Both the position numbers and the translations under genes were made by a program. Below, piece by piece: positions 16,512-45,871 of a DNA stretch of 64,000 bases. Position 1 is the stretch's first letter, and each line of letters opens with the position of its first letter. The notes below the pieces were generated by a model, which saw only the letters and a program-made list of their open reading frames with translations, did not search any database and was not told where the DNA came from. The stretch comes from Candidatus Poseidoniaceae archaeon. GTDB taxonomy: Archaea; Thermoplasmatota; Poseidoniia; Poseidoniales; Poseidoniaceae. Location: the NCBI GenBank assembly GCA_049606035.1, contig JBMYVD010000001.1, positions 34,244 through 98,243 of the forward strand, in the 5' to 3' direction.

Positions 16512-17543
16512 TTACCTTTTTTCATTTTCAAGGTCGATAACGATATGAGATTCGTCACCAATCACGCAATTATGTATTCTAGAGTCAATGATTGAATTTT
16601 CACCAATAATCGATGATTCTGATACTCCATTTATCCTCGAGTTTGCCATAACAACGGAGTTTACCGCTGCCCCATTTACCGAGGAACCTGCAAGAATAAC
16701 TGATCTAGAGATATGCCCACTTACAGAGGCTGAATCGCTGATGAAAGAGCCATCTGGCAATACTTCACCATCAGGCATTGGGAATGGTAACTCATTACGC
16801 CTTTCAATCAATGTCATTTGGGCTTTGTGAAGTTCAAAGGGATGTCCAACATCGAACCAAATCCCGTTGACTGTTTTTGCATACATTGGCCAGCCTCTTG
16901 CCAAAACATCGGGGAATAGTTGCTTTGAAAAATCGTATTTTTCACCTTCTGGTACTAATTCCATTACCTCTGGCTCGATTATGTATAATCCAGCATTAAT
17001 CAAATTTGAAAACGCTTCTTCATTTGTTGGTTTTTCTTTAAACTTTGAAATGTATCCTTCATCCAATGAGGAGTCAACATCGCCCTCGTGTTTACTTGAA
17101 AGGCCGACTATACCAAATTCTGTTGGATCATCTACTTCCCATAGAGCCATTGTAACCTTAGCTCCAGATTTTCGATGGGAAGATAGTAAATCTTCAATAT
17201 CGAAGGAAGCGACTGAATCTCCTGAACCTACAACGAAGGTTTCAGTCAATTCTTTAGACAATAATTTCACACTACCCGCTGTTCCCATTGGTCTATCTTC
17301 TTGATTAACTCTACTTTTGGTATTCCACGAATCCACGTGCGATACAAGTTGCTCCCCCTGGTAGCCGGTTGTGACAATAATTTCTGACAAACCTGCAGCA
17401 ACCATTGCATCCTTGACATAATCAATCACAGGTCTGCCTAATACAGGAACCATCGGTTTTGGCCGATTTTTCGTTAAGGGCATCAAACGGGTACCACGGC
17501 CTCCCGCCATGATAATTCCAAGCAGACTCTCACTTCCTGCCAC
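16512..17543 (-). CDS. Sugar-phosphate nucleotidyltransferase (GlmU/RmlA-like, with C-terminal left-handed beta-helix)
   Basis: GIIMAGGRGTRLMPLT..KPMVPV NTP-transferase signature. Confidence 0.8.
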   Translation of the reverse strand: MAGSESLLGIIMAGGRGTRLMPLTKNRPKPMVPVLGRPVIDYVKDAMVAAGLSEIIVTTGYQGEQLVSHVDSWNTKSRVNQEDRPMGTAGSVKLLSKELTETFVVGSGDSVASFDIEDLLSSHRKSGAKVTMALWEVDDPTEFGIVGLSSKHEGDVDSSLDEGYISKFKEKPTNEEAFSNLINAGLYIIEPEVMELVPEGEKYDFSKQLFPDVLARGWPMYAKTVNGIWFDVGHPFELHKAQMTLIERRNELPFPMPDGEVLPDGSFISDSASVSGHISRSVILAGSSVNGAAVNSVVMANSRINGVSESSIIGENSIIDSRIHNCVIGDESHIVIDLENEKR

Positions 17544-18594
17544 GGGAAGCGGTCATGTCTATGCTTCGCATGTTTTTCTTCTTACTAGAACGGCCCTTTT
17601 TGGCACCGACACCAGCCCTGTCTCCAGACATAGTACCACCAAATGATAGTGAACCTGCACTTAGAAGGTGTTCAACCATAGAATCTGCAACATTTTCATC
17701 CTCTGCACCGGTTTTCATCTCGTTAGAAACCGAAGCGTTATGGTCAGTAATCCAAGATTCTCTTTCTTCTCTTGCGATTTTCAGTTTGTCCCTTGCTTCA
17801 TTGACTTCCTTCATCATTTCAGAAATCTTTGAGTGAACCTCGTCGGCCTTTTCTCTGCAAGCCAAGAATTCTTTGTGGAATCTGTCGCCCTCACCTTTGA
17901 GGAAATCTCTGTGAGCGAATAATTCGTCTAATTCCTTGCTCATTCCCTTTGCTCTCTCAAGACATTCCACGAAATCCTTGTGTGCAGCATCTGCTTCTGC
18001 TTTGAGTTGAGCGATAGCTTCGTCCCTATTCGATAAGTCGACTTTGATTAATTGTAATTTCTCAACCTCTGGTTCAAGTTCTTTCATGCGGCGACGCATA
18101 TTCTTGATCTTCTCCATGGTCTCCTTTTCCTTCTTAGAAGACATACCACCTCGAGTTTCGTAGGTCTTTTCCATGTTGTCTACTTCACTCGACAGTTTGT
18201 TAAATTCAAATGAGGCGGATTTCTTGTCATTTTTATCGCCACGCTGGGCCTTTGCTTGCCCAATTAGGTCTCTAATTTGGGCTTGGATTGCATCTCTTCT
18301 GGTCTTGTGTAAATTCTGCTCTGCACGAATTGCCTTAACTTCTGCAACCGACATATCTAATTTTTCACGGTGCTCCTTGTACTGAGCTTGGATTGCATTG
18401 CGTTGCTCTGCGAAACGCTTTGCTTGGTCGTTGTGATTATTCCTTGCATCACGTAACTTTCGAACCTTTGCCTCCATTTGATGAAGGTGGTCACGCAAAT
18501 CAGCATCTGGACGAGTGTTCTCATCTTGAGCCTCGGTCATGGCATCTGCGACGGCATCATTCCTTTCAATGCTACGATTGAAAATATGGTTCAA
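17530..18594 (-). CDS. Archaeal coiled-coil protein, COG1340-like, paralog A
   Basis: Coiled-coil with the ..LSSEVDNMEKTYETRGGMSSKKEKETMEKIKNMRRRMKELE central motif shared with paralogs B and C. Confidence 0.7.
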   Translation of the reverse strand: MNHIFNRSIERNDAVADAMTEAQDENTRPDADLRDHLHQMEAKVRKLRDARNNHNDQAKRFAEQRNAIQAQYKEHREKLDMSVAEVKAIRAEQNLHKTRRDAIQAQIRDLIGQAKAQRGDKNDKKSASFEFNKLSSEVDNMEKTYETRGGMSSKKEKETMEKIKNMRRRMKELEPEVEKLQLIKVDLSNRDEAIAQLKAEADAAHKDFVECLERAKGMSKELDELFAHRDFLKGEGDRFHKEFLACREKADEVHSKISEMMKEVNEARDKLKIAREERESWITDHNASVSNEMKTGAEDENVADSMVEHLLSAGSLSFGGTMSGDRAGVGAKKGRSSKKKNMRSIDMTASRGRK

Positions 18595-20072
18595 GCAGAA
18601 GCCAAGAGTGCCATTAATTGGAAGATAATCGCCCCGAACAAACCAATACTACCAAGCAAGTATGAAGTGATAGAACTGGTATTCCTGAGCCAAGTTACGA
18701 ACTCTGGCTGTACTCTGACATTTATTTGGCGTCCAACGAGTAAATCTCCGTTTGTATTTTCCAACCTCACAGAAACAGATGCCTCTCCAGTCCTCTCCGG
18801 CAGTAGTGTTTGCCATGTTATTGTACCATCTCTCAATAGACCAGACATTCTTCCTATTACATCATCATCGCCTTCGCTAGATAATGGAACTTCTTCATCC
18901 GCCCACCATGATTTTTCTCCTGGCTCTAGATTATATCTTAGTGCCAAATCATTTGGACGGAAATCAGGTGAATGAACCCTGAGTACTACTTGCCTCTCCT
19001 CACCTGTAAGGTTGTAAATATAACAAAATAAATTCGCTTTTTCTGTAACTACGTTTTCCAAATCTACGTCAAATAACAAGCCATCTAAATCCGCTTTTTT
19101 CCCTATTGCAAGGTCCTGTTCTAACCTTTCAATTAATCTATAGAAGGCAGGATTGTTACGGTTTGAACTAGCAAACAAAGAATCCCATAGCTCTTCTTTG
19201 AAGATCTCATGTTCCAAAATGAGTTTTACTCCTTTGCTAGTCAGAATTTCAGCCAACTCAATACTGGTGGTGCTTCTATCAATACCACCTTTGAATCTTC
19301 TATGCATCAGCATAAGGAATTTTTCCCAGCCGAACTCTTTGTTTACTCCTTTCTTTGTGTTGGATTCAAATTCATTCAAAAAATCATCAAACTTACTTCT
19401 GAGCAGTGGGTCCATCAGATTTCTCATCATGTCAGTATATGCCATATTAAGAGTCGATGGATGAATCGGAGGGGTGTAAGCGGTTAGTAAACCGTCATCG
19501 GTAACCATGTTGAATTTTCGATTCCTTGTAGAAAGATGCTGTCCTATCGCAATTGTAACCAAGGAAGCGCTTGCTAATAAACCACGACCTCCTAGTTTGG
19601 AATCGGAGTCAAGATATGCAACAATCATTGAAATTATGGTTGCAGTTACACTCATCCACAATGCAGTATTGTGGCTAGCCATCGTCCTAGAAATCAAACC
19701 ATCAACCGATGAAAAACCATGCATGCTTGTAACGGGCCGATGAGAATTTGCAGCTTCTGCAACCTCCCATCTGAATACCTGCCTAGTCAGTTTAACCCTG
19801 TATCTATGTAGGTATAACCCAACACAGAATCCAATCAGAATTGTGGCTGAAATCAGTGTAAATGCAGTCGAGAGATCGAAACCTACTGCAGGTTCGATAT
19901 TGTCTAGCCACCAAGATGGACTTTCACCTTTGTAAGCCCAAGCACCAAAGAAAGAAAGTAGAGAAAATGTAGGTAATAGTAAAACTAAACGCAACCCTTC
20001 TGTCAGAAATTGGCTATCAATGCCATGAAATTTTTCTTCCTTTGAGCGGAGTTGTTGTAAATTTTCATTCAT
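18591..20072 (-). CDS. Polytopic membrane protein with large soluble domain, hypothetical
   Basis: Several TM helices at the N and C termini; translationally coupled to neighbours. Confidence 0.5.
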   Translation of the reverse strand: MNENLQQLRSKEEKFHGIDSQFLTEGLRLVLLLPTFSLLSFFGAWAYKGESPSWWLDNIEPAVGFDLSTAFTLISATILIGFCVGLYLHRYRVKLTRQVFRWEVAEAANSHRPVTSMHGFSSVDGLISRTMASHNTALWMSVTATIISMIVAYLDSDSKLGGRGLLASASLVTIAIGQHLSTRNRKFNMVTDDGLLTAYTPPIHPSTLNMAYTDMMRNLMDPLLRSKFDDFLNEFESNTKKGVNKEFGWEKFLMLMHRRFKGGIDRSTTSIELAEILTSKGVKLILEHEIFKEELWDSLFASSNRNNPAFYRLIERLEQDLAIGKKADLDGLLFDVDLENVVTEKANLFCYIYNLTGEERQVVLRVHSPDFRPNDLALRYNLEPGEKSWWADEEVPLSSEGDDDVIGRMSGLLRDGTITWQTLLPERTGEASVSVRLENTNGDLLVGRQINVRVQPEFVTWLRNTSSITSYLLGSIGLFGAIIFQLMALLASA

Positions 20073-20728
20073 TCCAATAACCTCAACAAAATTCTGTCAC
20101 CTAGTTCTTCAGATATTGAGAATTCCTCACCATTGAGAAAAATCCCAGAGGCGGTTCTTTCGACCATGTCTCCTATTCTTATTCCTACAGATTTCAAGAC
20201 CTCTCTTGTTGCAGATGTCGTCATAATCAATGCCACTTCTGCTTTCTGTGAAACGGCAAGACCTGAAAGTTTTGATACGGATGGATTCTGTTCAAGCCGA
20301 TGCGCAATCCTCGAATTAGCAGGCGGGATTGTTTTTCCTGATGGATCTGTTTCCGGGTTTCCAAGAAGGAGTGAAATACAAACTTCTAGATCATCGTTGA
20401 ATGCATGTTCAAGCCGACAGGCTGTTTCGTGGACATCCCCTTCAAACGGCAGTTGAGTTAGCAAGACTTCTGCTAACCTATGTCTTCTTTTCATCATCAT
20501 TCCGTGCTCAAGTCCCTTTTCAGTCAACATTGCACCTTTGTATGGAACGTAGTCAACAAATCCGTTTTTTGCTAACCTTTGAATCATCTCTGTTGCAGAC
20601 GCAGGTGAAACACCAAGGTACTTTGCAAGTTCACCATTTCTTACTCTCTCGCCGGGAATTCTTTCATTGAATTCATAGAGTGTCTCAAGGTACTCGTCTT
20701 CAAACTCTTGGAAATGTCCTGTAACCAT
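20069..20728 (-). CDS. DtxR/MntR-family metal-dependent transcriptional regulator with FeoA-like C-terminal domain
   Basis: wHTH (LAKYLGVSPASATEMIQRLAKNGFV) plus metal-binding helix and C-terminal SH3-like domain. Confidence 0.8.
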   Translation of the reverse strand: MVTGHFQEFEDEYLETLYEFNERIPGERVRNGELAKYLGVSPASATEMIQRLAKNGFVDYVPYKGAMLTEKGLEHGMMMKRRHRLAEVLLTQLPFEGDVHETACRLEHAFNDDLEVCISLLLGNPETDPSGKTIPPANSRIAHRLEQNPSVSKLSGLAVSQKAEVALIMTTSATREVLKSVGIRIGDMVERTASGIFLNGEEFSISEELGDRILLRLLE

Positions 20729-20737
20729 TCTATCCCC

Positions 20738-23161
20738 TCATCCTTTCCTTGCTTCGAATATTGTGCTGCACGCCGGGCACCTAGCCTTTGCAGGCCTCTT
20801 ATCATATGGAACCTTTAGTTTCCTAGTACATTTTGGACAACCGAGAATATCGTTATCCGAAGAAGAAAACAAATCTTGTGAAGGTGTTGATTTTTCTTCC
20901 TGTTTTTGCTTCTCTTCTGGAATTGGAGTCTCAACCTTGGCTTCGACATCAAATTTAGTTTCACATTCCGGACATCTCACTGCACCTGTGTATGTACTTG
21001 GAACACGTAACCTACGGTCGCAGGTTGGACATGCAACCTCGATTTTTTCCTCTTTAGAAGTGGACGCTTTGGTAGATTTAGGCGTTTTTTCTTTCTTTTC
21101 TCTTGCAGGAGAATTCTTGATTCGAACTGCGAAAATAACTACCATTCCTAGGGCTAATCCTCCCAAGATTCCTCCCCAAGGTATCTCAAAACCCTCATCC
21201 TCTGACTCCGCCTTTTCAGAGTTCACCAATACATCATCACTAACCGATTTTCCACCAACGTACCATGTTACTGATATTTTCACATTCTCTCCATCAGGCC
21301 AGTTTACAACAGTGCTATGGTCTGTGCTTCCCGAAGTTACCTCCGGACTAGTATCACTCCCCAATATTTCACCTGATGCATCAGTGACAACTATCTGTCC
21401 TTGTGGGATTGAACCCGTTGCGATATTGGTCAAGGTGTAGTAAACAGTCACTTTTGATCCAGCAGTAGGAACTCTAGGTTGTGTGTTCGGATTGACAGTG
21501 ATTTGGGGATTAATTTCGAAACTTGGCATTTGGGTTTCATCATCGGTGAAAGATGAGAAACCAATCGTCCATTCAATCGCTGACAAGTCGATGTAGACTT
21601 CTTGCCCATCTTGGAATCCAATATTGACATCACCATATGTAATTCCGGGTAGAAGTAGGCGTTCCTCAATAATTGCATCACCCTTCAAACCATCTTGTAT
21701 CGCTCCGAATTTCAGATTCACTAGCCTGTCTTTACCCTCAGAAAGCTCGGCAGACCAAGAAATTACAACTCCCTCGTCTTCGACATCAACGCTTTCTATC
21801 TCAAATAAAATCACTTGGGAATCTAAAACTGGTATTGAAATTGAACCCGACAAAATAGAATCGACAACTCCGTCATCACTTACAATTGACCAGTTTACCA
21901 GTTTATCTCCAGAAGAAGCAACAGAGAATGAGTGACTTACCTCTCCTGCTTTACCGCTATCAAGCGAAATTGTTGGACCGTCTTGTAAAACTCCACCCAT
22001 CTCGATTTCAAGATGCGCAGTTCCAATTGCATCACCTTCGTTTCGCAATAGTAGTGACAATGTAATGTCATCACCAGCATGCCATGGCCCACCTAGGATA
22101 GAAGGAGTAGAATGGCCAGCTCCAACGAATATTGCCGATATCATTTCTACAGAGTCTGTTGCGTTAATGGTAAATGAAGTCCTTGCTCCCGATGTAGTAC
22201 AGACAACTTGCCCTGGTTTGGAGTTCATCGAAATCGTGTAATTTGAATATCCACCTGTCGAGATGTTGACTTGATTGGAGAAGAACTCAACTCCATCTAT
22301 ACTACAGAGTAAACCCCCCGAGAAATTTGATTCTCCTGTGTTATTTGCATGTAATACCCAATCCATTGCATCCCCCGGCGCTGGCTGAGTAATTCTTTCC
22401 AGACTCAACTGAATCTCAGGTAGTGGCGGTGGGCCAACCGTGAAGGTTGTTTGAAATGTGTCGTCAGATGAATCTGAATCCTGCGTACCATTTAGTGATA
22501 CGTTAAGAAAATGAATACCTTCGGTAAGTTGTTGAGTTGTAAAACTCACTATTTCGGTTGAATCTCCTGAGATATTTACAGATTGCTCACCCAGTATAAT
22601 TGAATCTAGACTCAGATTGAGTGACCCATTCCAAGGCACGTCACCTGAGTTGATTATTGGCACCTCTATTTCGGCATAATCACCGTCATTAACAGTAAAA
22701 TTACCAGTTGGATTACCGTCTCCATCCACCGGATTAATCGTTGGTTCTGCTACGGAAATTTCCAACGGCCTCAACCGTTGGATTATTGTGCTGTAGTTTG
22801 TATACTGACCTTGACCTGGTGTTCCAACATCGCCAGTTATGACTATAGATAGGTTAGAATATCCTAATGGCGCGTCACCAACTGTTGTTTCGACAAATGA
22901 ATATGAACCATCATTGACCAAAACATTGCCACTGTCATAATCGATAATCGACCCATTTTCACCGGTAAGGGTAACATTCCAATTTACAGATGCTGAACTC
23001 GCACCGCCAACTCCTATCATCGTTATATTGAGCGATATCGGACCTTCTCCAATCTCTCCATCGCCTGAAATTGAGATTGTCTCAATCACACCGCCAGTAG
23101 CATTTACTTGTGGAACAAGAGCCATTGCAAAGAGGAATGCAACTAGAATGGCTCGTCGCAT
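20738..23161 (-). CDS. Large surface protein: signal peptide, Ig-like repeats, C-terminal TM, cytoplasmic tail with two MJ0042-type zinc ribbons
   Basis: N-terminal signal peptide; GGILGGLALGMVVIFAV TM; VACPTCDRRLRVP..RCPECETKF and GCPKCTRKLKVP..RCPACSTIF. Confidence 0.7.
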   Translation of the reverse strand: MRRAILVAFLFAMALVPQVNATGGVIETISISGDGEIGEGPISLNITMIGVGGASSASVNWNVTLTGENGSIIDYDSGNVLVNDGSYSFVETTVGDAPLGYSNLSIVITGDVGTPGQGQYTNYSTIIQRLRPLEISVAEPTINPVDGDGNPTGNFTVNDGDYAEIEVPIINSGDVPWNGSLNLSLDSIILGEQSVNISGDSTEIVSFTTQQLTEGIHFLNVSLNGTQDSDSSDDTFQTTFTVGPPPLPEIQLSLERITQPAPGDAMDWVLHANNTGESNFSGGLLCSIDGVEFFSNQVNISTGGYSNYTISMNSKPGQVVCTTSGARTSFTINATDSVEMISAIFVGAGHSTPSILGGPWHAGDDITLSLLLRNEGDAIGTAHLEIEMGGVLQDGPTISLDSGKAGEVSHSFSVASSGDKLVNWSIVSDDGVVDSILSGSISIPVLDSQVILFEIESVDVEDEGVVISWSAELSEGKDRLVNLKFGAIQDGLKGDAIIEERLLLPGITYGDVNIGFQDGQEVYIDLSAIEWTIGFSSFTDDETQMPSFEINPQITVNPNTQPRVPTAGSKVTVYYTLTNIATGSIPQGQIVVTDASGEILGSDTSPEVTSGSTDHSTVVNWPDGENVKISVTWYVGGKSVSDDVLVNSEKAESEDEGFEIPWGGILGGLALGMVVIFAVRIKNSPAREKKEKTPKSTKASTSKEEKIEVACPTCDRRLRVPSTYTGAVRCPECETKFDVEAKVETPIPEEKQKQEEKSTPSQDLFSSSDNDILGCPKCTRKLKVPYDKRPAKARCPACSTIFEARKG

Positions 23162-23258: not shown

Positions 23259-24089
23259 ATGGATGCGAACGACCTTCTCGCAGTCTCACCTAAACTTCTT
23301 GCTCAAGCAATTCTGCACCGTAGAGAAAGGATTGCAGAGATGATTCCAAGCGATTTAGAAGAACGGAAGGAGGAGCTACAAACCGCTGAACCAATGGCTA
23401 AAAACGCCAGAGAAGAGCGCGACAAAATCAACTCAAAGGTAGCCAATTTGAAGAATGAAAGGAACACGGCACAGAAGGAAGCCCGTCAACTGTTCGAAAG
23501 GGCTAATGAGATTCGGGAACAACTCATTGCAGAAGGCGGATTGAAGAATCCAGACCCAAAGTGGGCAAAGGACAAATTGTCTGCGAAATTGCAATCTCTG
23601 GAAAATCAACTAGAAACAAGCGCTGGCACTCACAAGACCGAAGAGAAATTCATCAATGAAATGAAGTCTCTGATCAGAGAACATGAAGAATGGGTAGAGG
23701 AGAGAACATCATCACAGCCTCTTGTCAAAGAAATGAAAGATGCAAGGTCAAAGGCTCGAAAACTATTGGACTCTGCTCAGAAAGCGCACGATGCGATGGT
23801 TGAATTGGTAAAATCAAACGAGGAAATGCACGAATCTTACGTCAAGTGGGAAGATGCAAGGGCCAGAGCTAGGTCTCGTACATCGAGACTTGAAAATGCA
23901 CTAAGTTCCAGTCAGGACGCTTTACAGTTCTGGAAAAACAGAGTTGAGGAAGATAACTTCAACGACCTACTCACAGATTCGGTTAGAGTAAGAGAAGGAG
24001 GTCCTTCATCCAAATCAATTGCAAGAGCAAAGAAGGCCGAAAGAGAAGCAGAGGCTAAACAAAACTCAGCAGGAGTTGAGGAAGAATGA
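23259..24089 (+). CDS. Archaeal coiled-coil protein, COG1340-like, paralog B (start trimmed to MDANDLL to leave a divergent promoter region)
   Basis: Coiled-coil; KLSAKLQSLENQLETSAGTHKTEEKFINEMKSL central motif. Confidence 0.6.
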   Translation: MDANDLLAVSPKLLAQAILHRRERIAEMIPSDLEERKEELQTAEPMAKNAREERDKINSKVANLKNERNTAQKEARQLFERANEIREQLIAEGGLKNPDPKWAKDKLSAKLQSLENQLETSAGTHKTEEKFINEMKSLIREHEEWVEERTSSQPLVKEMKDARSKARKLLDSAQKAHDAMVELVKSNEEMHESYVKWEDARARARSRTSRLENALSSSQDALQFWKNRVEEDNFNDLLTDSVRVREGGPSSKSIARAKKAEREAEAKQNSAGVEEE

Positions 24090-26170
24090 GCGAAGTCTGC
24101 GAGATTACTGGATTGTCAAAGGGTGACGCGACAAAATTATCCTACCTACATAAGCACATTACTCAGGGTAGCGAAATACCAATTCCGGATGAAAAGTCAT
24201 TGAGTGGATTCATCAAACCTTTAGAGAACACTGTTTCCTCCAACAGAATCCACAACAGTGAGCAAAAGAGGAAAGATAGTTTGCTAAAACACTTAGAGAA
24301 AAGCATTGCTTCAAAGTTTGAGGGAGCAAAACTTTCTCCATTTGGCTCCGCAGAGAGCGGACTTTCCCTTAAAGGAGGAGATTTTGACCTGTGCCTACAA
24401 ATCCCGAACGCTGACGAAAAGAAAACCATCAAACGAATAGGTGGAATGCTAAGAGGTCAAGGTATGGAGAAAGTACAGACAATTACCAGAGCAAAGGTAC
24501 CTATAGTCAAGTTCATTGACCCTCGAAGTGGCCTAAATGTTGACATCTCAATCAACAATTCACTAGCATTGTACAACACTAAATTGCTATCTTCATACGC
24601 CAAAATGGACAAGCGAGTGAAGGATCTTGCAATTTGTGTTAAGCACTGGGCCTTACACAGAAATGTTTCAGATTCGGTAAATGGAACACTATCATCATAC
24701 GCATGGTCAATCCTTGTAATCAACCACTTACAAGAGCAACAGGTGATCCCAAACCTGCAAAGTGGAGAGGATAGAACCATAATCGAGATAGACGGAAAAG
24801 AATTTGACATTACAGTGAATGAAGATGCTTCTCTTGCTCAACCAAGTCAACAAAATATCGCAGAATTAGCAATGTCATTTTTCAGAAATTATGCAACGAA
24901 GGACTGGGAAAATGAAGTGATTTCTATTCGAAATGGTAAATCCATCTCAAGAGACGAAAAGGGATGGATGAATGAAAATCCAACAGCACTAGAGATTTAC
25001 AACAGCGATAAGGAAAATCCGGGAAAGATGGGAGAGCACCATCTAGCTATTGAAGACCCATTTGAGACCGACCATGACCTGTGCAGGGTTGTTCGCGCCG
25101 AAGGTGAATTACGGATTAGAAATGAATTACTCAGGGCTGCAGAGTTGTTTGGAAGCGGCTCTACTTGGAAGGAAATCTGCGAAACCGTAGACGCTGATAG
25201 ATTGAAAGGCATGGAACCAGTTGACATTTTCCACGATCTGCGTGATAAAAACGACGACTTGGTTAGAAACATGTTGGAGAAAACCAAAGCAGAAATGGAT
25301 GCCGTTGACAGGCTGATAGACGCATTGGAATCTGAGCGACAGTCCACACTTAGAATGGCTAAAGCAATGCGTGGAGTTATTGAGGAAACTTCAGACTTGA
25401 GGAAGGAACACAAAGCGATTATCACAGGCCTAAAATCCAGGAACAAAGAAATCGATGAAATCAAAGTAAAAAGAGACAAAATCAACTCTGACATCATCCT
25501 CCCAATACACATGATTGAGGATGAATTATCCAAAGTTTACAATAGACTTACTGAGGAATTAGACATCCACAGAGTTCCTTCTTTAGCCAAAGAAAAGGAA
25601 CAGTTTTCTTGGTTCATGGAATTGCAAGCAATGCACGGTAAGGCAAGAGAGGCAAGTGAACTCCATCACAGATTCGTCGAGTTGGTAAAAGAGCAGAAAG
25701 AGGAAATCAAGAAATTGAAGATTTATGAAACCAAACACGATGATGCAACCGCAAAACTGCTCCAAGATGAACCGATGTTAAAGGACAAAAACATCAACTC
25801 CAAGGAAGTCGGTTCTTACGACAGACGTGTTCACAATATTCAGAGGGCTTTGAGACAGAGGCGAGGGGAAATGCACAAACTTCGCCGAGAAGCTGGCCGT
25901 TTGGATGCTTGGCTGCGCAAAAAATCTGGCGACCAAAACCGTGGGAGAGGTCGTGGCAAAGGAAACCGCAGAGGCCAAAAACCGAGAGAAAAGAAAGAGG
26001 AGTCTGGCCCCATGACCCTGGGGGACATTTCCGGGTTACTATCTGGCATGGGTACAGGATCATCGAGCAAAAGAACAAGGAAGGTCAGTTCCAAGAAGGC
26101 TGGAATGCGCAAAATGGGCAACTTAGGTGCACACAGAGGCTCTAGAAGTCAATTCAAAAAGAAAGAGTGA
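24086..26170 (+). CDS. Cid1/GLD-2/Trf4-like terminal nucleotidyltransferase (Pol-beta NTase plus PAP/OAS1 substrate-binding domain) fused to coiled-coil and RG-rich basic tail
   Basis: FGSAESGLSLKGGDFDL; AKVPIVKF; NVDISINN; NTKLLSSY; VKHWA; GTLSSYAWSILVINHLQ; C-terminal RGRGRGKGNRRG. Confidence 0.8.
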   Translation: MSEVCEITGLSKGDATKLSYLHKHITQGSEIPIPDEKSLSGFIKPLENTVSSNRIHNSEQKRKDSLLKHLEKSIASKFEGAKLSPFGSAESGLSLKGGDFDLCLQIPNADEKKTIKRIGGMLRGQGMEKVQTITRAKVPIVKFIDPRSGLNVDISINNSLALYNTKLLSSYAKMDKRVKDLAICVKHWALHRNVSDSVNGTLSSYAWSILVINHLQEQQVIPNLQSGEDRTIIEIDGKEFDITVNEDASLAQPSQQNIAELAMSFFRNYATKDWENEVISIRNGKSISRDEKGWMNENPTALEIYNSDKENPGKMGEHHLAIEDPFETDHDLCRVVRAEGELRIRNELLRAAELFGSGSTWKEICETVDADRLKGMEPVDIFHDLRDKNDDLVRNMLEKTKAEMDAVDRLIDALESERQSTLRMAKAMRGVIEETSDLRKEHKAIITGLKSRNKEIDEIKVKRDKINSDIILPIHMIEDELSKVYNRLTEELDIHRVPSLAKEKEQFSWFMELQAMHGKAREASELHHRFVELVKEQKEEIKKLKIYETKHDDATAKLLQDEPMLKDKNINSKEVGSYDRRVHNIQRALRQRRGEMHKLRREAGRLDAWLRKKSGDQNRGRGRGKGNRRGQKPREKKEESGPMTLGDISGLLSGMGTGSSSKRTRKVSSKKAGMRKMGNLGAHRGSRSQFKKKE

Positions 26171-26175
26171 GATAA

Positions 26176-26664
26176 ATGGGCTTAGATTCGAGTGATAAAT
26201 TCGCTCGTTGGTGTTTGGGCCCAGCACCAAAGTCTCTTGATGCTGAAAGTGTGGAGATAATTCGCCAGTTATTTTTAGACCAAACTGGAGAAAGATATGC
26301 TTCTGAATCCGTGAGAACACTCCCTATTCCAGAGTGGAGAGGGAATCTCGTTTTGTTGGATTCTAACAATATGATTCGTGGCGTGTTGTGGGGTAATAAA
26401 TTCAAAGAAAATAGGGTTAGAATCGTGGCTTTTGCGATAGATTCTGATTTCAAAGGTAGAGGATTTGGGTCGCAAGCATGGGAAATGCTTGTCGACGCAG
26501 CATTCGCAGACGGACGCAACGAGATACAACTAGAGGTAAGAGGGGATAATAAATTCGCGATTGAATTCTATAAAAGGAGAGGCTTAGAGATTGTTTCAAC
26601 CTTGGAGGGATACTACAAAGCAGGTATTGGTTACGTAATGCGAGGAAAGATTTCATCCAAATAG
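26176..26664 (+). CDS. GNAT-family N-acetyltransferase
   Basis: VAFAIDSDFKGRGFGSQAWEMLVDAA..IQLEVRGDNKFAIEFYKRRGLEIV acetyl-CoA binding motifs. Confidence 0.8.
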   Translation: MGLDSSDKFARWCLGPAPKSLDAESVEIIRQLFLDQTGERYASESVRTLPIPEWRGNLVLLDSNNMIRGVLWGNKFKENRVRIVAFAIDSDFKGRGFGSQAWEMLVDAAFADGRNEIQLEVRGDNKFAIEFYKRRGLEIVSTLEGYYKAGIGYVMRGKISSK

Positions 26665-26666
26665 TA

Positions 26667-26999
26667 TTGAAGTGCCATCGCTTGAGATGGACTGTGGGAA
26701 TCAGAATCATTGCCGACCTTGTGGATGAGGAATGCATCATTTCAGCAGCATTACTAGACCCAGAAGGATTCACAATTGAGAGAACTTCAAACGAATTCAA
26801 ACCCAAAGTAATGATTGAGTTGTTGGACCTACAATCAGAGGATAAGATGATCACTATTGTCGGTGAGCATTCAACAGTTATCTGCTCACGTATTGACACT
26901 GGTCACTGCATCGTAATTCAGTGTCCAAACGGTAGCAATTTAGGTAAAGCTAGACAAAGATTGTCAGCCGCTTGTAGCGCAATTCCACCCTTTTTATGA
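26667..26999 (+). CDS. Roadblock/LC7 (MglB-like) domain protein
   Basis: About 110 aa; ISAALLDPEGFTIERTS..ITIVGEHSTVICSRIDTGHCIVIQ pattern of Robl fold. Confidence 0.55.
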   Translation: MKCHRLRWTVGIRIIADLVDEECIISAALLDPEGFTIERTSNEFKPKVMIELLDLQSEDKMITIVGEHSTVICSRIDTGHCIVIQCPNGSNLGKARQRLSAACSAIPPFL

Positions 27000-27052: not shown

Positions 27053-27967
27053 GTGTACGGGAGTACAAGGCGAACAGGTGCGATGGTAATGGCAGAATTG
27101 AAGGATACTTTGGAAGAAAAGCGCAAACTGGTCAATCAAAAAGCGACTCAATATCGCAACACCAGAGATGATTGGAACTCCAGAACAAAGGAACATACCG
27201 TCATCAGAAACGAACTGAATGCAGAGGTTCGTGAACTAATCCAAAATGTCCGCCAACAGCGTGAAATTCGTGAACAAATGAACGAGTTGGTAAGAGAAAA
27301 GAAATCTATTCGTGCTGAAGCAAATAAGAAGGTCAAGGCTGCAAAGTCAATGCTAGATTCTGAAAGGTCTGAGAAGGACGACAGAGATTCAGGTCCAAGA
27401 GGCCGTAGAGAAAAGAAAGTGACTGTTCACTCTCTGCGCCGTGAATTCGACAGGCTAGAACGAGAAATGGAAATGGGTAAGCACCTAGGTCAAAACGAAA
27501 AGAAAGCAATGAAGCGAATGAAAGAAATTCGTGCAAAGATTCGTGAAATGCAAGCATCTGAAGACTCCAATGGAGATTTGAAAGAAGCACGTGGCATGCT
27601 AAGAGAAGCAATGGTCGAGCAAGAGGCCGCTCACGTTGAGGTACAGAAAGCTGCACAAGCCGCTCAAGAAGCACACGACTTAATGCTACAGTGGAATAAA
27701 GAGGTTGACAGACAAAGAGAACTCGCAGAAGAGGCTCATCGTGAACTTAGAAAGTCAAAGAAGGAGGCTGACAAAGCACACCACTTCTACATTGTATCAC
27801 TGAGGTGCCTACATTCAATCCAAGATATACTACGTGCAATGCAAGGAACTGCAACAGGAGAGTCACAGCGTGGAGCACGTGGTGAAGTCCAAGATTTGAT
27901 GTCCAAGTTAATGAGTGGAGATACGCTTTCCACTGAGGAACTTATGCAACTTCAACGCTTTGACTAA
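27053..27967 (+). CDS. Archaeal coiled-coil protein, COG1340-like, paralog C
   Basis: VTVHSLRREFDRLEREMEMGKHLGQNEKKAMKRMKEIRAKIREM central motif; N-terminal R/E-rich heptads. Confidence 0.7.
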   Translation: MYGSTRRTGAMVMAELKDTLEEKRKLVNQKATQYRNTRDDWNSRTKEHTVIRNELNAEVRELIQNVRQQREIREQMNELVREKKSIRAEANKKVKAAKSMLDSERSEKDDRDSGPRGRREKKVTVHSLRREFDRLEREMEMGKHLGQNEKKAMKRMKEIRAKIREMQASEDSNGDLKEARGMLREAMVEQEAAHVEVQKAAQAAQEAHDLMLQWNKEVDRQRELAEEAHRELRKSKKEADKAHHFYIVSLRCLHSIQDILRAMQGTATGESQRGARGEVQDLMSKLMSGDTLSTEELMQLQRFD

Positions 27968-28013: not shown

Positions 28014-29171
28014 ATGATTGGCAAAGATGAGATTGCAGGGATAATCGAAGACTACGACCGTCTCAAATTGAGAGTTGGCATGACGGCAAGTCACTCAGCC
28101 CTAGACATCTGTGATGGTGCTATCGAGGAAGGATTCCCCACCGTTGCATATTGTCAAAAAGGTAGGGACAAGACTTACTCTCAATATTTCAAAACTCAGC
28201 GCACCGTTTCTGGAAGAGTCAGAAGGGGAATGGTCGACAAAGCAATCGTCATGGATTCTTTCAACGATGTTATGAATCCAACAATGCAGGATGAAATGCG
28301 AAGGAGAAACGTAATTTATATCCCAAACAGATCTTTCACCTCTTATTCCAGCATCGATGATGTAGAGAATAACTTCCATGTTCCCATGTTTGGCTCACGC
28401 AATATGCTGAGAATGGAAGAGCGTACAGAAGACCAGGATTATTATTGGATCTTGGACAAAGCAGGTCTTCCATACCCCGAAGCAATCGAGGACCCCCAGG
28501 ATATCGATTGCTTGGTAATCGTGAAACTTCACCATGCCCAAAAGAAGTTGGAGAGAGGTTTCTTCACCTGTGCATCTTACGAAGAATACCTAGAGAAATC
28601 ACAAACATTACTCAAGGAAGGTACAATCGACCAAGCAAGTCTCGATGGTGCTCGAATCGAAAGATACGTTATCGGTCCAGTGTTTAACTTGAATTTCTTT
28701 TACAGCCCTCTTGAAGAAGACATGCCTAAGTTAGAACTCCTTGGAGTAGATTGGAGATTTGAGTCTTCACTTGACGGTCACGTCAGACTACCTGCTCCAC
28801 AACAGATGACTATGCCTGCTCACCAACAAATCCCAGAGATGACAGTTGTTGGTCACAACACAGCAACAATCAGAGAATCCCTACTTGAGAAGGCATTTGA
28901 ACTAGGTGAGAAATTCATCACTGCTTCAAAGGAACATTACGACCCAGGAATAATTGGCCCGTTCTGTCTTCAAACATGTATCGACAAGGACATGAATTAC
29001 TCAATCTACGATGTTGCTCCACGTTTAGGTGGAGGCACAAACGTACACGTTTCTGTTGGTCATCCATACGGAAATGCAACATGGCGTCAGCCAGTTTCCT
29101 CTGGTCGCAGAATTGCGATGGAACTGAGAAGAGCTGCAGAACAAGACCGACTACTCGAAGTATTGACTTGA
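28014..29171 (+). CDS. purP: 5-formaminoimidazole-4-carboxamide ribonucleotide synthetase PurP (archaeal ATP-grasp)
   Basis: MxxxxEIxxIIEDYD..MTASHSALDICDGAIEEGF N-terminal PurP signature; about 385 aa. Confidence 0.8.
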   Translation: MIGKDEIAGIIEDYDRLKLRVGMTASHSALDICDGAIEEGFPTVAYCQKGRDKTYSQYFKTQRTVSGRVRRGMVDKAIVMDSFNDVMNPTMQDEMRRRNVIYIPNRSFTSYSSIDDVENNFHVPMFGSRNMLRMEERTEDQDYYWILDKAGLPYPEAIEDPQDIDCLVIVKLHHAQKKLERGFFTCASYEEYLEKSQTLLKEGTIDQASLDGARIERYVIGPVFNLNFFYSPLEEDMPKLELLGVDWRFESSLDGHVRLPAPQQMTMPAHQQIPEMTVVGHNTATIRESLLEKAFELGEKFITASKEHYDPGIIGPFCLQTCIDKDMNYSIYDVAPRLGGGTNVHVSVGHPYGNATWRQPVSSGRRIAMELRRAAEQDRLLEVLT

Positions 29172-36734: not shown

Positions 36735-41499
<4,765 letters not shown>

Positions 41500-41503
<4 letters not shown>

Positions 41504-44500
41504 CTGCGGTCCTCCAGTTCTAGGCGCATTGCAACTCCGAGACTCTTCATCTCGTCAAGTAGCAACTTGAATGCGTATGAGGTTTGTACCTTGTACACCT
41601 CCGCTCCGTCGCCGTGTATCGGCGACACGTATGTTCTTCGTTTTGGATCGTACCAAGCAATGTGTCCAGATTGGGCACATACGAATAGGTCGATTCCGTC
41701 AGATTCGTCAAGGAGTCTGTCCTTGATAACCATTGAAGCACCGTGTGCAATCAGACAATCACGCTCCATTTCTCCGAATCTCAGACCACCTTGTCGAGCA
41801 CGTCCTTCTGTCGGCTGACGGGTTAGAATCTGTACACGACCACGGCTTCTTGCGTGGATCTTTCCAGATACCATGTGGTGTAGCTTCTGGTAGTAGATAC
41901 AACCAACGAAGATTTCAGCTGGGTATGTTTCTCCTGTTTCTCCATTGACCATGACTTCTCTACCAGTGTGTGCATATCCATTGCGAACAAGGCTGTCACG
42001 CAGGCTGCCTTCCTTTTCTCCTCTGAAAGCAGTACCATCGATTCTTCGTCCTTCGAGAGAACCGACTTTTCCTCCAATCATTTCCAGAACGTGAGCAACT
42101 GTCATTCTTGAAGGAATAGCGTGTGGGTTGATGATTAGGTCAGGAACTACACCGTCACGAGTGAACGGCATATCTTCAGCATCAACTAGGCGACCGATGA
42201 CTCCCTTCTGTCCGTGGCGAGATGCGAATTTGTCTCCAACTTCGGGGACCTTGTGTGATCTAACCATACATCTAACCAGTCTACCAGAGTCTAGAGACTC
42301 AGTGACATAGACGTTGTCGACCCATCCCTTTTCACCATGTCGAACTGGCATGGATGATTCACGGCGTTCTTGTGCTTGCAGGAAAGCACCTGCACCAGTT
42401 TCCTCCAAGAATCTTGGAGGGCTTGTCTTACCGACGAGTACATCTCCACCTTCGAGGTATTTCTCAGGATGAGGTAGACCGTCAGATTCCAAGTGGTCAT
42501 ATGCTCCAACAGGCTTCAATCCCTTGACTTCTTCTAGACCTGTACCTGGAATTTCAATTTCTTCTACTTGTCCACCAGGGAATCTTCTGCGCTCTGCGTT
42601 GTAGGTTCTGTTGAAAGTAGAGCGCCCAAGTGCACGCTGTACACTGGAGCGATTCATGATTACAGCGTCTTGCATGTTGTAGCCGTGAAGGCTCATGACG
42701 GCAACGATGAAGTTCTGACCACCAGGCCTGCTGTCGAACTTTGTAGTGTCCATTGCCTGTGTGTAGGTGATGGAGCGCTGTGGGTAGTGCAAGATGTGCA
42801 ATCTTGTATCAGGTCTTAGCCTGTAGTTTGAACTTGGCAAACCAAGTGATTGCTTTACCATTGCAGTACCACCGGTAACACGTGGCGTTGAGTTGTGTTC
42901 CGGGTATGGAATCAATGAAGCACATACACCTAGTACGAGTTGTGGGTCAATCTCACAGTGAGTGTGTTCTTGAGTGTACAGTAGTGGTACGTTGAAGATT
43001 GCGTCAGCCTTCTCTCCGTTTGGCATTGTAACTCTGGCTTGCAGGTTAGCTTCCTCAGCACCTGGCTCACCAAGATTTAACCATGTTACTGCAGAGTGAC
43101 TTACTGGTCTGCCAGCGTATTCGTTTCCTTCAGGAACTACTTCAGGAAGAACGAACGGCCTTGGAGCGATGTAAAGGTCTTCTTCTTCTTCGGCATCGAT
43201 CCACTCAACAACACCTTCGTTGACCAGGTCCTTGAATGTCAGTTCTCCCGAACTTACCATTTCCAAGTGCTTTTGAGTTAATCTTGGTGCACCATCGTAT
43301 AGAATCAATACTGGACGTAGGATTCTTCCCTTGTCGGTATTGATGAATATGTCTTTGTTGACATTGTCGTATCTGATGGATACTTCAGGTCTGATTGCCC
43401 CGCGTCTTCGAGCATTCTTGAATTGAGTAACCAAATTCTTTCCACGCTTGTGTACACCATAGATGTCACCGTTCACGTGAATCCTGTCACCATCTGTCCA
43501 GTCATCTGGTTGGAATACATCCATTTCGTCAAGGCGAGTTCTGATTTCATCCTCGGGAACAGCTTCAGAGATGTCAATCATCTGTGCAGCGTTCTTTACA
43601 AGACCACAGTTCTGACCTTCAGGGGTCTCGTTTGGACATAGACGACCCCATTGAGTGGGGTGCAGGTCACGTGCTTCGAAGTGAGGCTGGCTGCGAACTA
43701 GCGGGCTCGTAACACGGCGCATGTGAGATAGTGCAGAAAGGAAGGTTGTCCTATCCAACAACTGGCTAACACCAGATCTTCCACCGACCCAGTTGCCGGT
43801 CGCAAGAGCGTGCATGATTTTGCTTGTCAAAACGTCAGGTCTCAAACAAGATGTGATCTTTAGTTCACGCTTTCTGTTGTGGTGCCTCTCAAGTTGGTAC
43901 TTCAGGTCACGTGCAAGTTGCCCCATGGATACACGGAACAAATCTTCAACAAGGTCGCCAGCAAGGCGAACACGCTTGTTTGCGTAGTGGTCCTTGTCGT
44001 TTGGCTTCCTGCTTGTGATTGCCATCTCCAATACCTGGCGTACAATTCTTCCAAGGAAGATTGCTTTCTTCTTTCTATCCTCGACTTGATCGCCCAAGTG
44101 AGGTAGAAGTTCACGGTCTAGGAGTTGGTTAACTCTAGCTTCACGATATTCTTTCTGCTGGCCTGCAGCGAATTTCTTCTCTAACCAGCCGTGTGCTTCA
44201 TCCATTGAATCAACAGCGTATTCTTCGTTGTCTTTCACTTCGTTAATGTTAGCAACGATGAATTTGAAAGTCTCCGTTGGACCTGCAATCGCTTGGAACA
44301 GTTCCTGGTCATTCTCGATTCCAAGTGCGCGCATTAGTAATACTACAGGAATTGCAGTTGTACCAGCGGTACTAATCTTGACCATCAGCATACCGTCACG
44401 GCGCTTCTCGACTGTTAGCGGCTTTCTCATACCGTCCTTTTGTGAGAAAATCTTTGCAACCTCGGTCTTCTTTGCGTATCTCTTGTTGATTTCAACAGTA

Positions 44501-45111
44501 ACACGGTTAGGAGCAAGGTCTTCCATAGAGATTAGTACTCTCTCAGTACCGTTGATGATGAAATAGCCTCCAGGGTCTAGTGGGTCTTCGCCCTTTTGGC
44601 GAAGCAACTCTTCCCACATCTTTCTGTCTTCATCGGAGGTTGTTGGGTGTAGCACACGGTCACCTGCGATGTGATTTGCGTGCAAATTACATCTGCGGCT
44701 GCGAACCATGATTGGCATGTTTCCAACCTGAACTCCTTTTTCTGGTTGTGTCGGCACACCATTTCTGAATATTGTGAAATCCATCTTTACTGGAGACATG
44801 TATGTCAACTTGCGTAGGCGGCATTCCATTGGCTGTGAAGGGTGGTCACTTCCATCAGCTTCACGGATAGTTGGCTCGCCAAGTTGAATGTTCTTGACGC
44901 GGATGATTATGTCTTGGTCGATTACGTCGAGTTTGATTAAACCGCCCTTGTCGTCTTCGACTTCTTCATCGGTACCGACTCTGATACTTCTAACGATTTT
45001 CTCCATTCGAGACAGGGAATTGTCACCAGACGGGATACAGTCATCGTATGATGCTAGTTGGTGGTTAACTAGGCTTCTTTCTCGGAAAAATGATTCAATA
45101 ATCTCTTTCAT
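41500..45111 (-). CDS. rpoB: RNA polymerase subunit B (unsplit, 1203 aa)
   Basis: Full-length Rpb2 homolog; C-terminal zinc ribbon; order rpoH-rpoB-rpoA'-rpoA''. Confidence 0.95.
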
Positions 45112-45755: not shown

Positions 45756-45797
45756 ACCCCGCTTTGCCCTAATACACCAGGCCGGTATCTTGTCAGG

Positions 45798-45871
45798 CGG
45801 GCCTGACGGGGTTCGAACCCGCGACCGTCCGGTTAAAAGCCGGACGCTCTACCTGACTAAGCTACAGGCCC
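45798..45871 (-). tRNA. tRNA-Lys (anticodon UUU)
   Basis: Manual fold: acceptor GGGCCTG/CAGGCCC, anticodon stem TCCGG/CCGGA with loop CTTTTAA, T-loop TTCGAAC; CCA not encoded. Confidence 0.8.

Follow-up and report, generated by a model that had tools for sequence, protein, structure and literature searches.

A candidate terminal uridylyltransferase of the Cid1/URT1/TUT4/7 branch, with a coiled-coil domain and a basic tail, in the archaeal order Poseidoniales

We analysed a 64,000-nucleotide stretch of DNA from Candidatus Poseidoniaceae archaeon (GenBank assembly GCA_049606035.1, contig JBMYVD010000001.1, positions 34,244 to 98,243 of the forward strand), referred to below as the window, and studied in it a gene for a nucleotidyltransferase (NTase) of 694 amino acids (aa). 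The protein is almost certainly a true member of the Cid1/URT1/TUT4/7 family encoded by a genuine archaeal gene, and we consider it probable, with clearly less assurance, that the best explanation holds in full, namely that it is an active terminal uridylyltransferase (TUTase), acquired once, which uridylates RNA. In eukaryotic RNA turnover, terminal uridylyltransferases have a central place, with parts in mRNA decay, microRNA control, histone mRNA and U6, and Poseidoniales (Marine Group II archaea) belong to the archaea that are most abundant at the ocean surface.

Family assignment and predicted structure

The open reading frame (ORF) of the NTase starts with ATG and runs from 24086 to 26170 on the plus strand. 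An earlier reading of the same DNA, here called the original prediction, had reported this 694-aa ORF and had quoted from it the strings FGSAESGLSLKGGDFDL, AKVPIVKF, NVDISINN, NTKLLSSYAKMDKRVKDL, VKHWA and GTLSSYAWSILVINHLQ, all of which are confirmed by the translation. The gene and the parts of its product are as follows; pLDDT is the per-residue confidence of the AlphaFold2 (AF2) model.

24086-26170, plus strand: terminal nucleotidyltransferase of Cid1/URT1/TUT4/7 type, 694 aa, with a coiled-coil domain and a basic tail (ORF, Pfam, PDB, homolog, AF2 and Foldseek evidence)
24086-24220, plus strand: N-terminal extension, aa 1-45, family consensus MSxxCExTGLS... (start conserved in homologs; pLDDT 77-90)
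24221-24601, plus strand: Pol-beta NTase palm, aa 46-172, with G87-S88, D99 and D101 (nt 24380-24388) and D153 (nt 24542-24544) (PF22600 match; TUT7 alignment)
24602-25165, plus strand: PAP/OAS1 substrate-binding domain, aa 173-360, including PAP_assoc at aa 257-330, K186, R192 and S203-S204-Y205 (PF03828 match; URT1 alignment; Foldseek match to 7xs4)
25052-25087, plus strand: nucleotide-recognition motif E323-DPFETDHDLCR-R334, with D324 and H330 (nt 25073-25075) (alignment to Cid1, 4e7x_A)
25223-25930, plus strand: conserved antiparallel coiled-coil domain, aa 380-615 (AF2 helices with pLDDT 80-96)
25931-26167, plus strand: disordered basic tail, aa 616-694 (pLDDT below 50 except for a helix at 645-653)

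The protein matched the Pfam families PF22600 (MTPAP-like central palm; 1.8e-31, aa 46-172) and PF03828 (PAP_assoc; 7.6e-13, 49 bits for a cut-off of 22.6, aa 257-330), and more weakly PF01909 (6e-6) and PF19088 (TUTase; 6.5e-4), in such a way that both profiles by which the original prediction had proposed to check the assignment, PF01909 and PF03828, were found, the second of them above the Pfam cut-off. No NCBIfam model matched the protein. Among the sequences of PDB the top match was Arabidopsis URT1 (6.7e-48, aa 59-354), followed by human TUT7 (5e-45), TUT4 (3e-43), S. pombe Cid1 (2e-39) and CutA (6e-35); the N-terminal module of TUT4/7 matched the query only weakly. Judged by their scores, the Pfam and URT1 matches are far above chance level. 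More remote matches were found to Gld2 (1e-27), TUT1 (2e-23), mtPAP (7e-16), Trf4 (1.6e-10) and the trypanosomal TUTases (1e-7 or weaker). All of these are much more distant, so that the protein can be assigned specifically to the Cid1/URT1/TUT4/7 branch, more narrowly than by the label "Cid1/GLD-2/Trf4-like" under which it had been predicted.

The AF2 model of the 694-aa protein, built on 53 homologs, has a mean pLDDT of 83, which is about 90 for the first 365 residues. Its best Foldseek match in PDB was again URT1 (7xs4; E 2.6e-22, TM 0.89 on the target, rmsd 2.3 Å, 32% identity), and the next ones were Cid1 and TUT7 (TM 0.85-0.87) and CutA (0.82-0.84), with TUT1 lower. In the predicted model, the two-lobed fold superimposes on the solved TUTases. 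The structural comparison thus returned Cid1-family TUTases, in agreement with what had been predicted, and no CD-NTase, OAS, CCA-adding enzyme or minimal NTase was present among the top 50 Foldseek matches in PDB.

These searches bear on a different reading, that of a signalling or defence nucleotidyltransferase (CD-NTase, OAS or minimal NTase) producing a second messenger or nucleotidylating proteins or small molecules. With cGAS/OAS-type enzymes the protein has the Pol-beta fold and the helical PAP/OAS1 domain in common (PMC11646218), and the operon described below encodes a probable Roadblock/LC7 protein, often a signalling adaptor. Against this, the top sequence and structure matches are all RNA-tailing terminal nucleotidyltransferases (TENTs), PADLOC defence models gave nothing beyond coiled-coil noise for the NTase and its operon partners, IMG/VR contained no viral relative, and the neighbourhood is fixed across the order and housekeeping-like, not a patchy defence island. 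For the lack of a PADLOC match and of such structures in the top 50 of Foldseek, and for the fixation of the locus, the defence candidate was rejected, and we regard a signalling role as very improbable.

Active site and predicted substrate

The active site was located by alignment to full-length TUT7 and to Cid1 (4e7x_A, 405 aa, in full-length numbering). In the former, D99, D101, D153 and N164 correspond to D1058, D1060, D1119 and N1130, respectively. In the latter, the motif IEDPFETDHDLCR aligns with IEDPFEISHNVGR, in such a way that D324, H330 and R334 are equivalent to D330, H336 and R340, and D153 and Y205 correspond to D160 and Y212. The position of N164, which is that of the uracil O2 contact, lies just upstream of the PAP/OAS1 domain, in the palm part. 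An H336N mutant chain of Cid1 gives a lower score with the query, as expected for a matched histidine position.

Conservation was counted in 53 archaeal homologs, whose identity to the window protein is 29-89%. The palm residues G87-S88, D99, D101 and D153 are each kept in 51-53 of them, the catalytic aspartates D99, D101 and D153 in 51, 52 and 52, respectively. The residues predicted to read uracil are kept to a similar extent (N164 and D324 in 52/53, H330 in 49/53), and for the set of D324, Y205 and N164-T165 the counts are 48-52/53. In the substrate-binding domain, K186, S203, S204 and Y205 are found in 52 homologs each and R192 in all 53. As read from these alignments, such conservation is the pattern expected under selection for catalysis and UTP. 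In Cid1, the lysine pair K193 and K197 and the serine S211 bind the triphosphate; of the corresponding residues K186 and S204 are present here, and the second lysine position is L190.

The roles of the equivalent residues are known from solved enzymes. H336 of Cid1 hydrogen-bonds O4 of uracil, N3 and O2 are read by a water that D330 holds, and Y212 makes a stacking contact with the base (PMC3479196), and TUT7 reads UTP likewise through H1286, N1130 and D1280 (PMC6240794). Every confirmed poly(U) polymerase has a histidine of the H336 type, those poly(A) polymerases that are confirmed having as a rule Asn in its place, and the H336N change improved the use of ATP by Cid1 (PMC3479196). Since N164, D324 and H330 are present and kept in 49-52 of the 53 homologs, UTP is the predicted substrate of the NTase.

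Distribution in Poseidoniales

The original prediction had described the flanking genes as archaeal and had named a eukaryote/archaeon chimera of the contig as one of the cases that would overturn it. The genes of the window that bear on this point, together with its single tRNA gene, are these.

3402-5306, plus strand: beta-CASP ribonuclease aCPSF1 (termination/processing nuclease)
28014-29171, plus strand: PurP, archaeal-type
36735-38303, minus strand: archaeal RNA polymerase A''
38300-41503, minus strand: archaeal RNA polymerase A'
41500-45111, minus strand: archaeal RNA polymerase B
45796-45871: single tRNA-Lys(UUU)

The RNA polymerase subunits, aCPSF1 and PurP are archaeal, as had been stated. 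The NTase gene has no introns, and the GC content around it (0.425) is inside the range of the window (0.416-0.484). A search of 5.8 billion proteins gave homologs by the hundred at full length (670-730 aa), with identities as low as 37%, whose named sources are Poseidoniales, Poseidoniaceae or "Euryarchaeota" proteins from metagenome-assembled genomes (MAGs), and which are called hypothetical, "nucleotidyltransferase domain-containing" or "DNA polymerase sigma" in the databases. When GTDB was scanned with one genome for each species, in line with the search that had been proposed for Marine Group II (MG-II) and Thermoplasmatota, relatives were found in 223 genome species, and the best 80 of these 223, which were inspected, were all Poseidoniales, from both Poseidoniaceae and Thalassarchaeaceae. 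Among the loci are one in the MG-II chromosome assembly CM001443.1 (2.06 Mb) and one in a contig of 1.53 Mb.

The possibility that a eukaryotic fragment was mis-assembled or mis-binned into an archaeal contig could draw on the fact that the closest characterised relatives are all eukaryotic and that one relative carries a bacterial MAG label. It is refuted by the same gene order in 82 independent loci and by the 4-nt overlap with the archaeal gene CCup immediately upstream, and the GC content and the absence of introns speak against it as well. On the archaeal flanks, the recurrent gene order and the CCup overlap, an assembly chimera is excluded, and we give the artefact reading practically no weight. 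None of the results that the original prediction had listed as contrary to it was obtained.

The relative with a bacterial label is a full-length protein with 37% identity on contig CALDQY010000113.1 (locus L074), deposited under "uncultured Rhodobiaceae bacterium". This is very probably a Poseidoniales contig that was mis-binned into a bacterial MAG.

Origin of the gene

In order to place the archaeal proteins among their relatives, aa 1-365 were used as a HMMER query on 1.84 billion cluster representatives. About 15 representatives of the archaeal type, with the NTase N-terminal and a length near 700 aa, were followed by eukaryotic proteins with no gap in the scores. The named nearest non-archaeal matches were a mollusc TUT4/7-like protein, Vigna URT1, proteins of Phalansterium, Basidiobolus, Fabomonas and Pigoraptor, and an MMETSP transcript, all of them eukaryotic, from a mollusc, a plant, an amoebozoan, a fungus and protists, and no other prokaryotic lineage appeared among the relatives in this search.

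A neighbour-joining tree was built from 140 catalytic domains (15 archaeal and 125 eukaryotic), unrooted and drawn from the top 150 matches only. In it the archaeal group was split from the 125 eukaryotic sequences in 197 of 200 bootstraps, with an internal branch of 0.25, and attached between a URT1/Cid1-like group (91 sequences) and a TUT4/7-like group (34 sequences), inside neither. The mean distance within the archaeal group, 1.1, is as large as that in the eukaryotic set. Midpoint rooting was tried, and as the root fell inside the archaeal group, which we took as a rate artefact, the unrooted split was kept.

Most likely, in view of these sequences, the gene derives from one ancient transfer from a eukaryotic lineage into the ancestor of Poseidoniales, after which it was fused to the module of coiled coil and tail. 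A single, old transfer is supported by the presence of the gene in both families of one order, by its not being seen in other prokaryotes, and by the broad radiation of TENTs in eukaryotes. A virus as the vector of the transfer was considered and rejected: IMG/VR holds no relative of the NTase, and the best structural match in BFVD (7.9e-4, TM 0.48) is not meaningful.

Coiled-coil domain and basic tail

In the AF2 model the C-terminal 330 aa or so form long helices (390-469, 474-489, 500-561 and 572-615), followed by the disordered basic tail; the helices are packed antiparallel, which agrees with the charged coiled coil described in the original prediction. The mean column conservation of this half equals that of the catalytic half (0.59 in both), and E503, F510, R601, E602, G604, R605, L651, L652 and G685 are invariant in it, which argues that it is no loose linker. 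Pfam gave no match for the C-terminal half. A specific fold was sought with a separate AF2 model of the domain (pLDDT 79), which led to generic antiparallel coiled coils only (an SMC arm, SH3BP5, CT398 and chemoreceptors in Foldseek, all at E of 1.5e-3 or higher and TM of 0.5 or lower).

The C-terminal half had also been said to resemble the flanking coiled-coil paralogs, called COG1340-like at that time and found here to belong to DUF7121 (PF23435). As homology, this resemblance was rejected. BLASTP of the C-terminal half with the DUF7121 paralogs gave E values of 0.002-0.13, hhalign with the three paralogs gave probabilities of 0.8-8.9%, the HMM scores with the paralogs were the same for real, reversed and shuffled sequences, and PF23435 did not match the C-terminal half at E of 10 or lower. 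What is shared is the coiled-coil character and one short peptide of 10 residues. By eye, the K/R-rich tail of the NTase resembles the basic tail of CCfar, one of these paralogs.

The tail carries an RG run, RGRGRGKGNRRG, at aa 619-630 (nt 25940-25975). The claim that the protein ends in an RGG-like box was not upheld, as 64 residues separate this internal run from the C-terminus, and an RG/KG run is found in 13/53 homologs, being lineage-specific. The conserved property is the positive charge, the net charge of the last 80 residues being +9 to +20 in all 53 homologs.

A conserved tail peptide, SGPMTLGDISGLL, is located at aa 640-652 (nt 26003-26041). It is a variant, one residue shorter, of the peptide SG-x-[ST]-[LI]-S-[LT]-x-[DE]-[LI], which is present in 72/76 of the CCdown proteins, encoded downstream of the NTase, at 17 residues from the C-terminus, in 23/85 of the NTase ORFs at about 61 residues from the end, and in none of the 1547 other ORFs of the related loci. 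The peptide common to the NTase tail and CCdown may be a common docking motif.

Conserved operon

The NTase gene lies in a plus-strand operon, the neighbours of which are listed here together with a further paralog on the minus strand.

23259-24089, plus strand: CCup, upstream DUF7121 coiled-coil gene, about 276 aa, with an acidic G-x-EEE end (PF23435 1.5e-4, weak in the window copy; orthologs carry a PF23435 match not marked as weak)
26176-26664, plus strand: GNAT acetyltransferase, archaeal Ard1/RimI-like, 5 nt downstream of the NTase (PF00583 2e-13; TIGR01575 rimI 8.8e-14, below the cut-off)
26667-26999, plus strand: probable Roadblock/LC7 (MglB-like) protein of 110 aa (assigned through orthologs)
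27053-27967, plus strand: CCdown, downstream DUF7121 paralog, with the C-terminal peptide SGDTLSTEEL (PF23435 4.2e-17; syntenic)
17530-18594, minus strand: CCfar, third DUF7121 paralog, with a basic tail (PF23435 8.9e-4 in the window copy; match not marked as weak in orthologs)

The operon is as tight as had been predicted, the ORF coordinates giving successive gaps of -4, 5, 2, 53, 46 and 7 nt. When 82 related loci were compared, the plus-strand order CCup, NTase, GNAT, 110-aa protein, CCdown and PurP was near-invariant, and so was the order of the divergent minus-strand genes, CCfar, a 493-aa protein, an Fe-dependent repressor and an 807-aa membrane/zinc-ribbon protein. The stop codon of CCup overlaps the start codon of the NTase (ATGA) by 4 nt in 77/79 loci, which fits translational coupling of the two genes.

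The CCup ORF, as listed, starts at TTG 23028, encodes 353 aa and overlaps the divergent gene for the 807-aa protein. The real start is probably ATG 23259, because the divergent gene starts at 23161 and the orthologs have 267-281 aa; a GGAGG is found about 20 nt upstream of this ATG, and the divergent intergenic region would then have about 97 bp.

Among the downstream neighbours, the GNAT protein, syntenic in 80/82 loci, is closest to the Ard1 N-terminal acetyltransferase of Thermoplasma volcanium (4pv6, 4.6e-12). The window copy of the 110-aa protein has no Pfam match of its own; PF03259 is matched by 15/29 of its orthologs (best 2.4e-5), and the profile of the orthologs matches MglB/Robl_LC7 in PDB at 6e-4. 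No partner small GTPase for this probable Roadblock protein is visible in the conserved cluster.

The literature searches on DUF7121 found nothing. COG1340 has been described as a highly conserved archaeal group with function unknown (PMC1322226), and arCOG01159/TK2157, a near-universal uncharacterised archaeal coiled-coil protein, possibly of the DUF7121 family, tops a list of priority targets (PMC6393860).

The divergent block (17530-23161, minus strand) has a synteny across Poseidoniales as strict as that of the NTase operon. It comprises the DUF7121 paralog, the 493-aa protein, which has no family, the repressor, which is of the DtxR type, and the 807-aa membrane protein, whose zinc ribbons are C-terminal.

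Comparison with known systems

The closest solved relative, URT1 (PDB 6L3F and 7XS4), has the same two-domain core, the catalytic Asp triad and an EDPFET-x-H-D motif with the UTP histidine. It differs in that its core is C-terminal, behind a long disordered N-terminal region, whereas in the archaeal protein the core comes first, with a conserved coiled coil of 235 aa and a basic tail behind it; a Leu four residues after the KHWA lysine, the archaeal host and the location in an operon are further differences. Cid1, TUT4 and TUT7 are alike in their E values (2e-39, 3e-43 and 5e-45), in the TM scores of Cid1 and TUT7 (0.85-0.87) and in the matching catalytic and uracil-reading residues. However, Cid1 is minimal and lacks any accessory domain, TUT4/7 have, besides CCHC zinc knuckles, a second NTase module that is inactive, and the module of coiled coil and basic tail is absent from all three. 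Gld2, TUT1, mtPAP, Trf4/Pap2 and the trypanosomal TUTases share the Pol-beta NTase plus PAP/OAS1 architecture, all being much more distant. The three DUF7121 paralogs that flank the gene are charged coiled coils like the C-terminal half of the NTase, with no detectable homology to it.

Non-templated addition to RNA 3' ends, which is predicted for the NTase, is carried out in archaea by the exosome and the class I CCA-adding enzyme. The archaeal exosome makes A-rich RNA tails (PMC7667871, PMC5570065), but it does so by reverse phosphorolysis and is not an NTase, and the CCA-adding enzyme, which shares the NTase superfamily fold (PMC11646218), is tRNA-specific and is absent from the Pfam, PDB-sequence and Foldseek matches of the query. 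A mark made of U would thus differ as a signal from the A-rich, exosome-dependent tailing that is known in archaea.

Reviews regard TUTases, along with poly(A) polymerases of the non-canonical type, as eukaryotic (PMC6240794, PMC11646218). In the searchable literature we found no paper that ties Poseidoniales or Marine Group II to this enzyme family, and no description of an archaeal Cid1-type uridylyltransferase. The sequences themselves are already known, being in the databases under generic names; what is new, taken jointly, is their recognition as an order-wide, apparently active TENT of the U type, the architecture with coiled coil and basic tail, and the fixed operon. Family membership and the order-wide conservation of the operon suggest that a major group of ocean archaea uridylates RNA. 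If this is true, it would be a new layer of post-transcriptional control in prokaryotes, and an ancient exchange of a gene between eukaryotes and archaea, later fixed, would be documented. It would also make a compact catalytic core of 360 aa available for biochemical comparison, and give a functional handle on the DUF7121 coiled-coil proteins, possibly also on COG1340, if the two correspond.

Proposed function and alternatives

We propose that the NTase is a template-independent RNA 3'-terminal uridylyltransferase of the Cid1/URT1/TUT4/7 branch, retained since the ancestor of Poseidoniales. Its N-terminal 360 aa would bind UTP as well as the 3'-OH of an RNA end that is single-stranded, with H330 reading O4 of uracil, N164 reading O2, D324 reading N3 through a water, and Y205 stacking on the base, and one or a few U residues would be added by means of two metal ions held on D99, D101 and D153. 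We hold this addition of U to RNA 3' ends with moderate confidence. Coiled coil and tail together would give non-specific RNA binding and attach the enzyme to other proteins, for which CCup and CCdown, the paralog with the shared peptide, are the likeliest candidates. With lower confidence, the basic tail may provide the non-specific RNA affinity that eukaryotic enzymes obtain from zinc knuckles, basic patches or disordered N-termini, the coiled coil may pair with the translationally coupled CCup, and the shared peptide may dock the NTase and CCdown onto a common partner. It is speculative that the U tail would act as a fate mark, either for decay or for the recruitment of Sm-like proteins, which in archaea bind U-rich RNA (PMC3710371). 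A still wider view, which we advance tentatively and would sooner doubt than assert, is that a whole order of planktonic archaea uridylates RNA through a dedicated complex of DUF7121 proteins and a TUTase with its archaeal-specific module of coiled coil and basic tail, although such uridylation is regarded as a eukaryotic mark of RNA fate, and that the lineage of the enzyme stands at the base of the eukaryotic Cid1/URT1/TUT4/7 radiation and not within a eukaryotic group of today, from which a very old exchange between the domains would follow.

Several points weigh against this proposal. The equivalent of Cid1 K197 is L190 in the window protein, four residues past K186, and this position is Leu or Ser in 44/53 homologs and Lys in URT1 and TUT7; the invariant R192 might substitute for the second lysine. 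U specificity can be predicted well from the histidine, which nonetheless is neither sufficient for it nor a proof of it, and Cid1 also uses ATP and GTP in vitro (PMC3479196). H330 itself is replaced in 4/53 homologs, by Arg in P0086, P0089 and P0123 and by Ile in P0082, P0089 having in addition D99V, and these lineages may have another nucleotide preference or a lower activity. The functional link to the neighbours rests on synteny in a single order, which is weak evidence, and the complex with DUF7121 is drawn from gene order, the overlap and one short motif. Finally, we infer the direction and the date of the transfer from a tree that is unrooted, distance-based and limited to the top matches.

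Some of these observations would fit an RNA-tailing enzyme of the same family that is not specific for U, either a non-canonical poly(A) polymerase or an adder of C/U or A/U like fungal CutA; its tails, of another composition, would stabilise or destabilise RNA. Few residues set the nucleotide choice in the Cid1 family, and Cid1 incorporates A and G in vitro (PMC3479196); CutA is a strong match (6e-35, TM 0.82-0.84), a lysine at the K197 position is lacking, and R or I replaces H330 in some lineages. However, H330, N164 and D324 are kept in 49-52 of the 53 homologs, the confirmed poly(A) polymerases of the family have Asn and not His (PMC3479196), and the closest solved relatives, URT1, TUT7, TUT4 and Cid1, are all uridylyltransferases, so that a tailer with another preference seems unlikely to us.

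One lineage, P0137 (L083:8001-10082, JGI sample 3300003894), bears on whether catalysis is needed at all. Its protein has D99E, D101G, D153N, K186T, GND in place of the SSY at 203-205, and D324S, and it is nevertheless full length (693 aa) and retains the same operon; its coiled-coil half keeps the usual identity (41%), with 29.5% in the NTase half. By these substitutions it is a pseudoenzyme lineage, and because it keeps the full-length protein and the operon with its catalytic residues gone, a role independent of catalysis would also be under selection, which is a further difficulty for the proposal.

A mainly structural role would follow this line to its end: the coiled coil and the tail would be a scaffold for the DUF7121 and Roadblock proteins, and the NTase a module for binding RNA or nucleotides, whose catalysis is secondary or dispensable. 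Besides P0137, it finds support in the coiled-coil half being as conserved as the catalytic half and in the dead NTase modules that are known in the family, such as the N-terminal module of TUT4/7. The conservation of each catalytic Asp in 51-52 of the 53 homologs and of the nucleotide-reading residues in 49-52, in sequences with an overall identity of only 29-40%, a signature of purifying selection on catalysis, speaks against it, and we judge this role less likely still than a tailer that is not U-specific. The uridylyltransferase remains the reading that we prefer.

Two further variants of the gene were observed. In a 1.53-Mb contig of GCA_038141355.1 (L001:8001-10062) two ORFs, of 536 and 153 aa, are called for the NTase, which could be due to a frameshift, to an error in a long-read assembly or to a genuine split. 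A longer family variant, P0011 (860 aa), has an extended C-terminal coiled coil, with weak Pfam matches, below the cut-off, to a CT398-like coiled-coil hairpin (PF24481) and to DUF5856.

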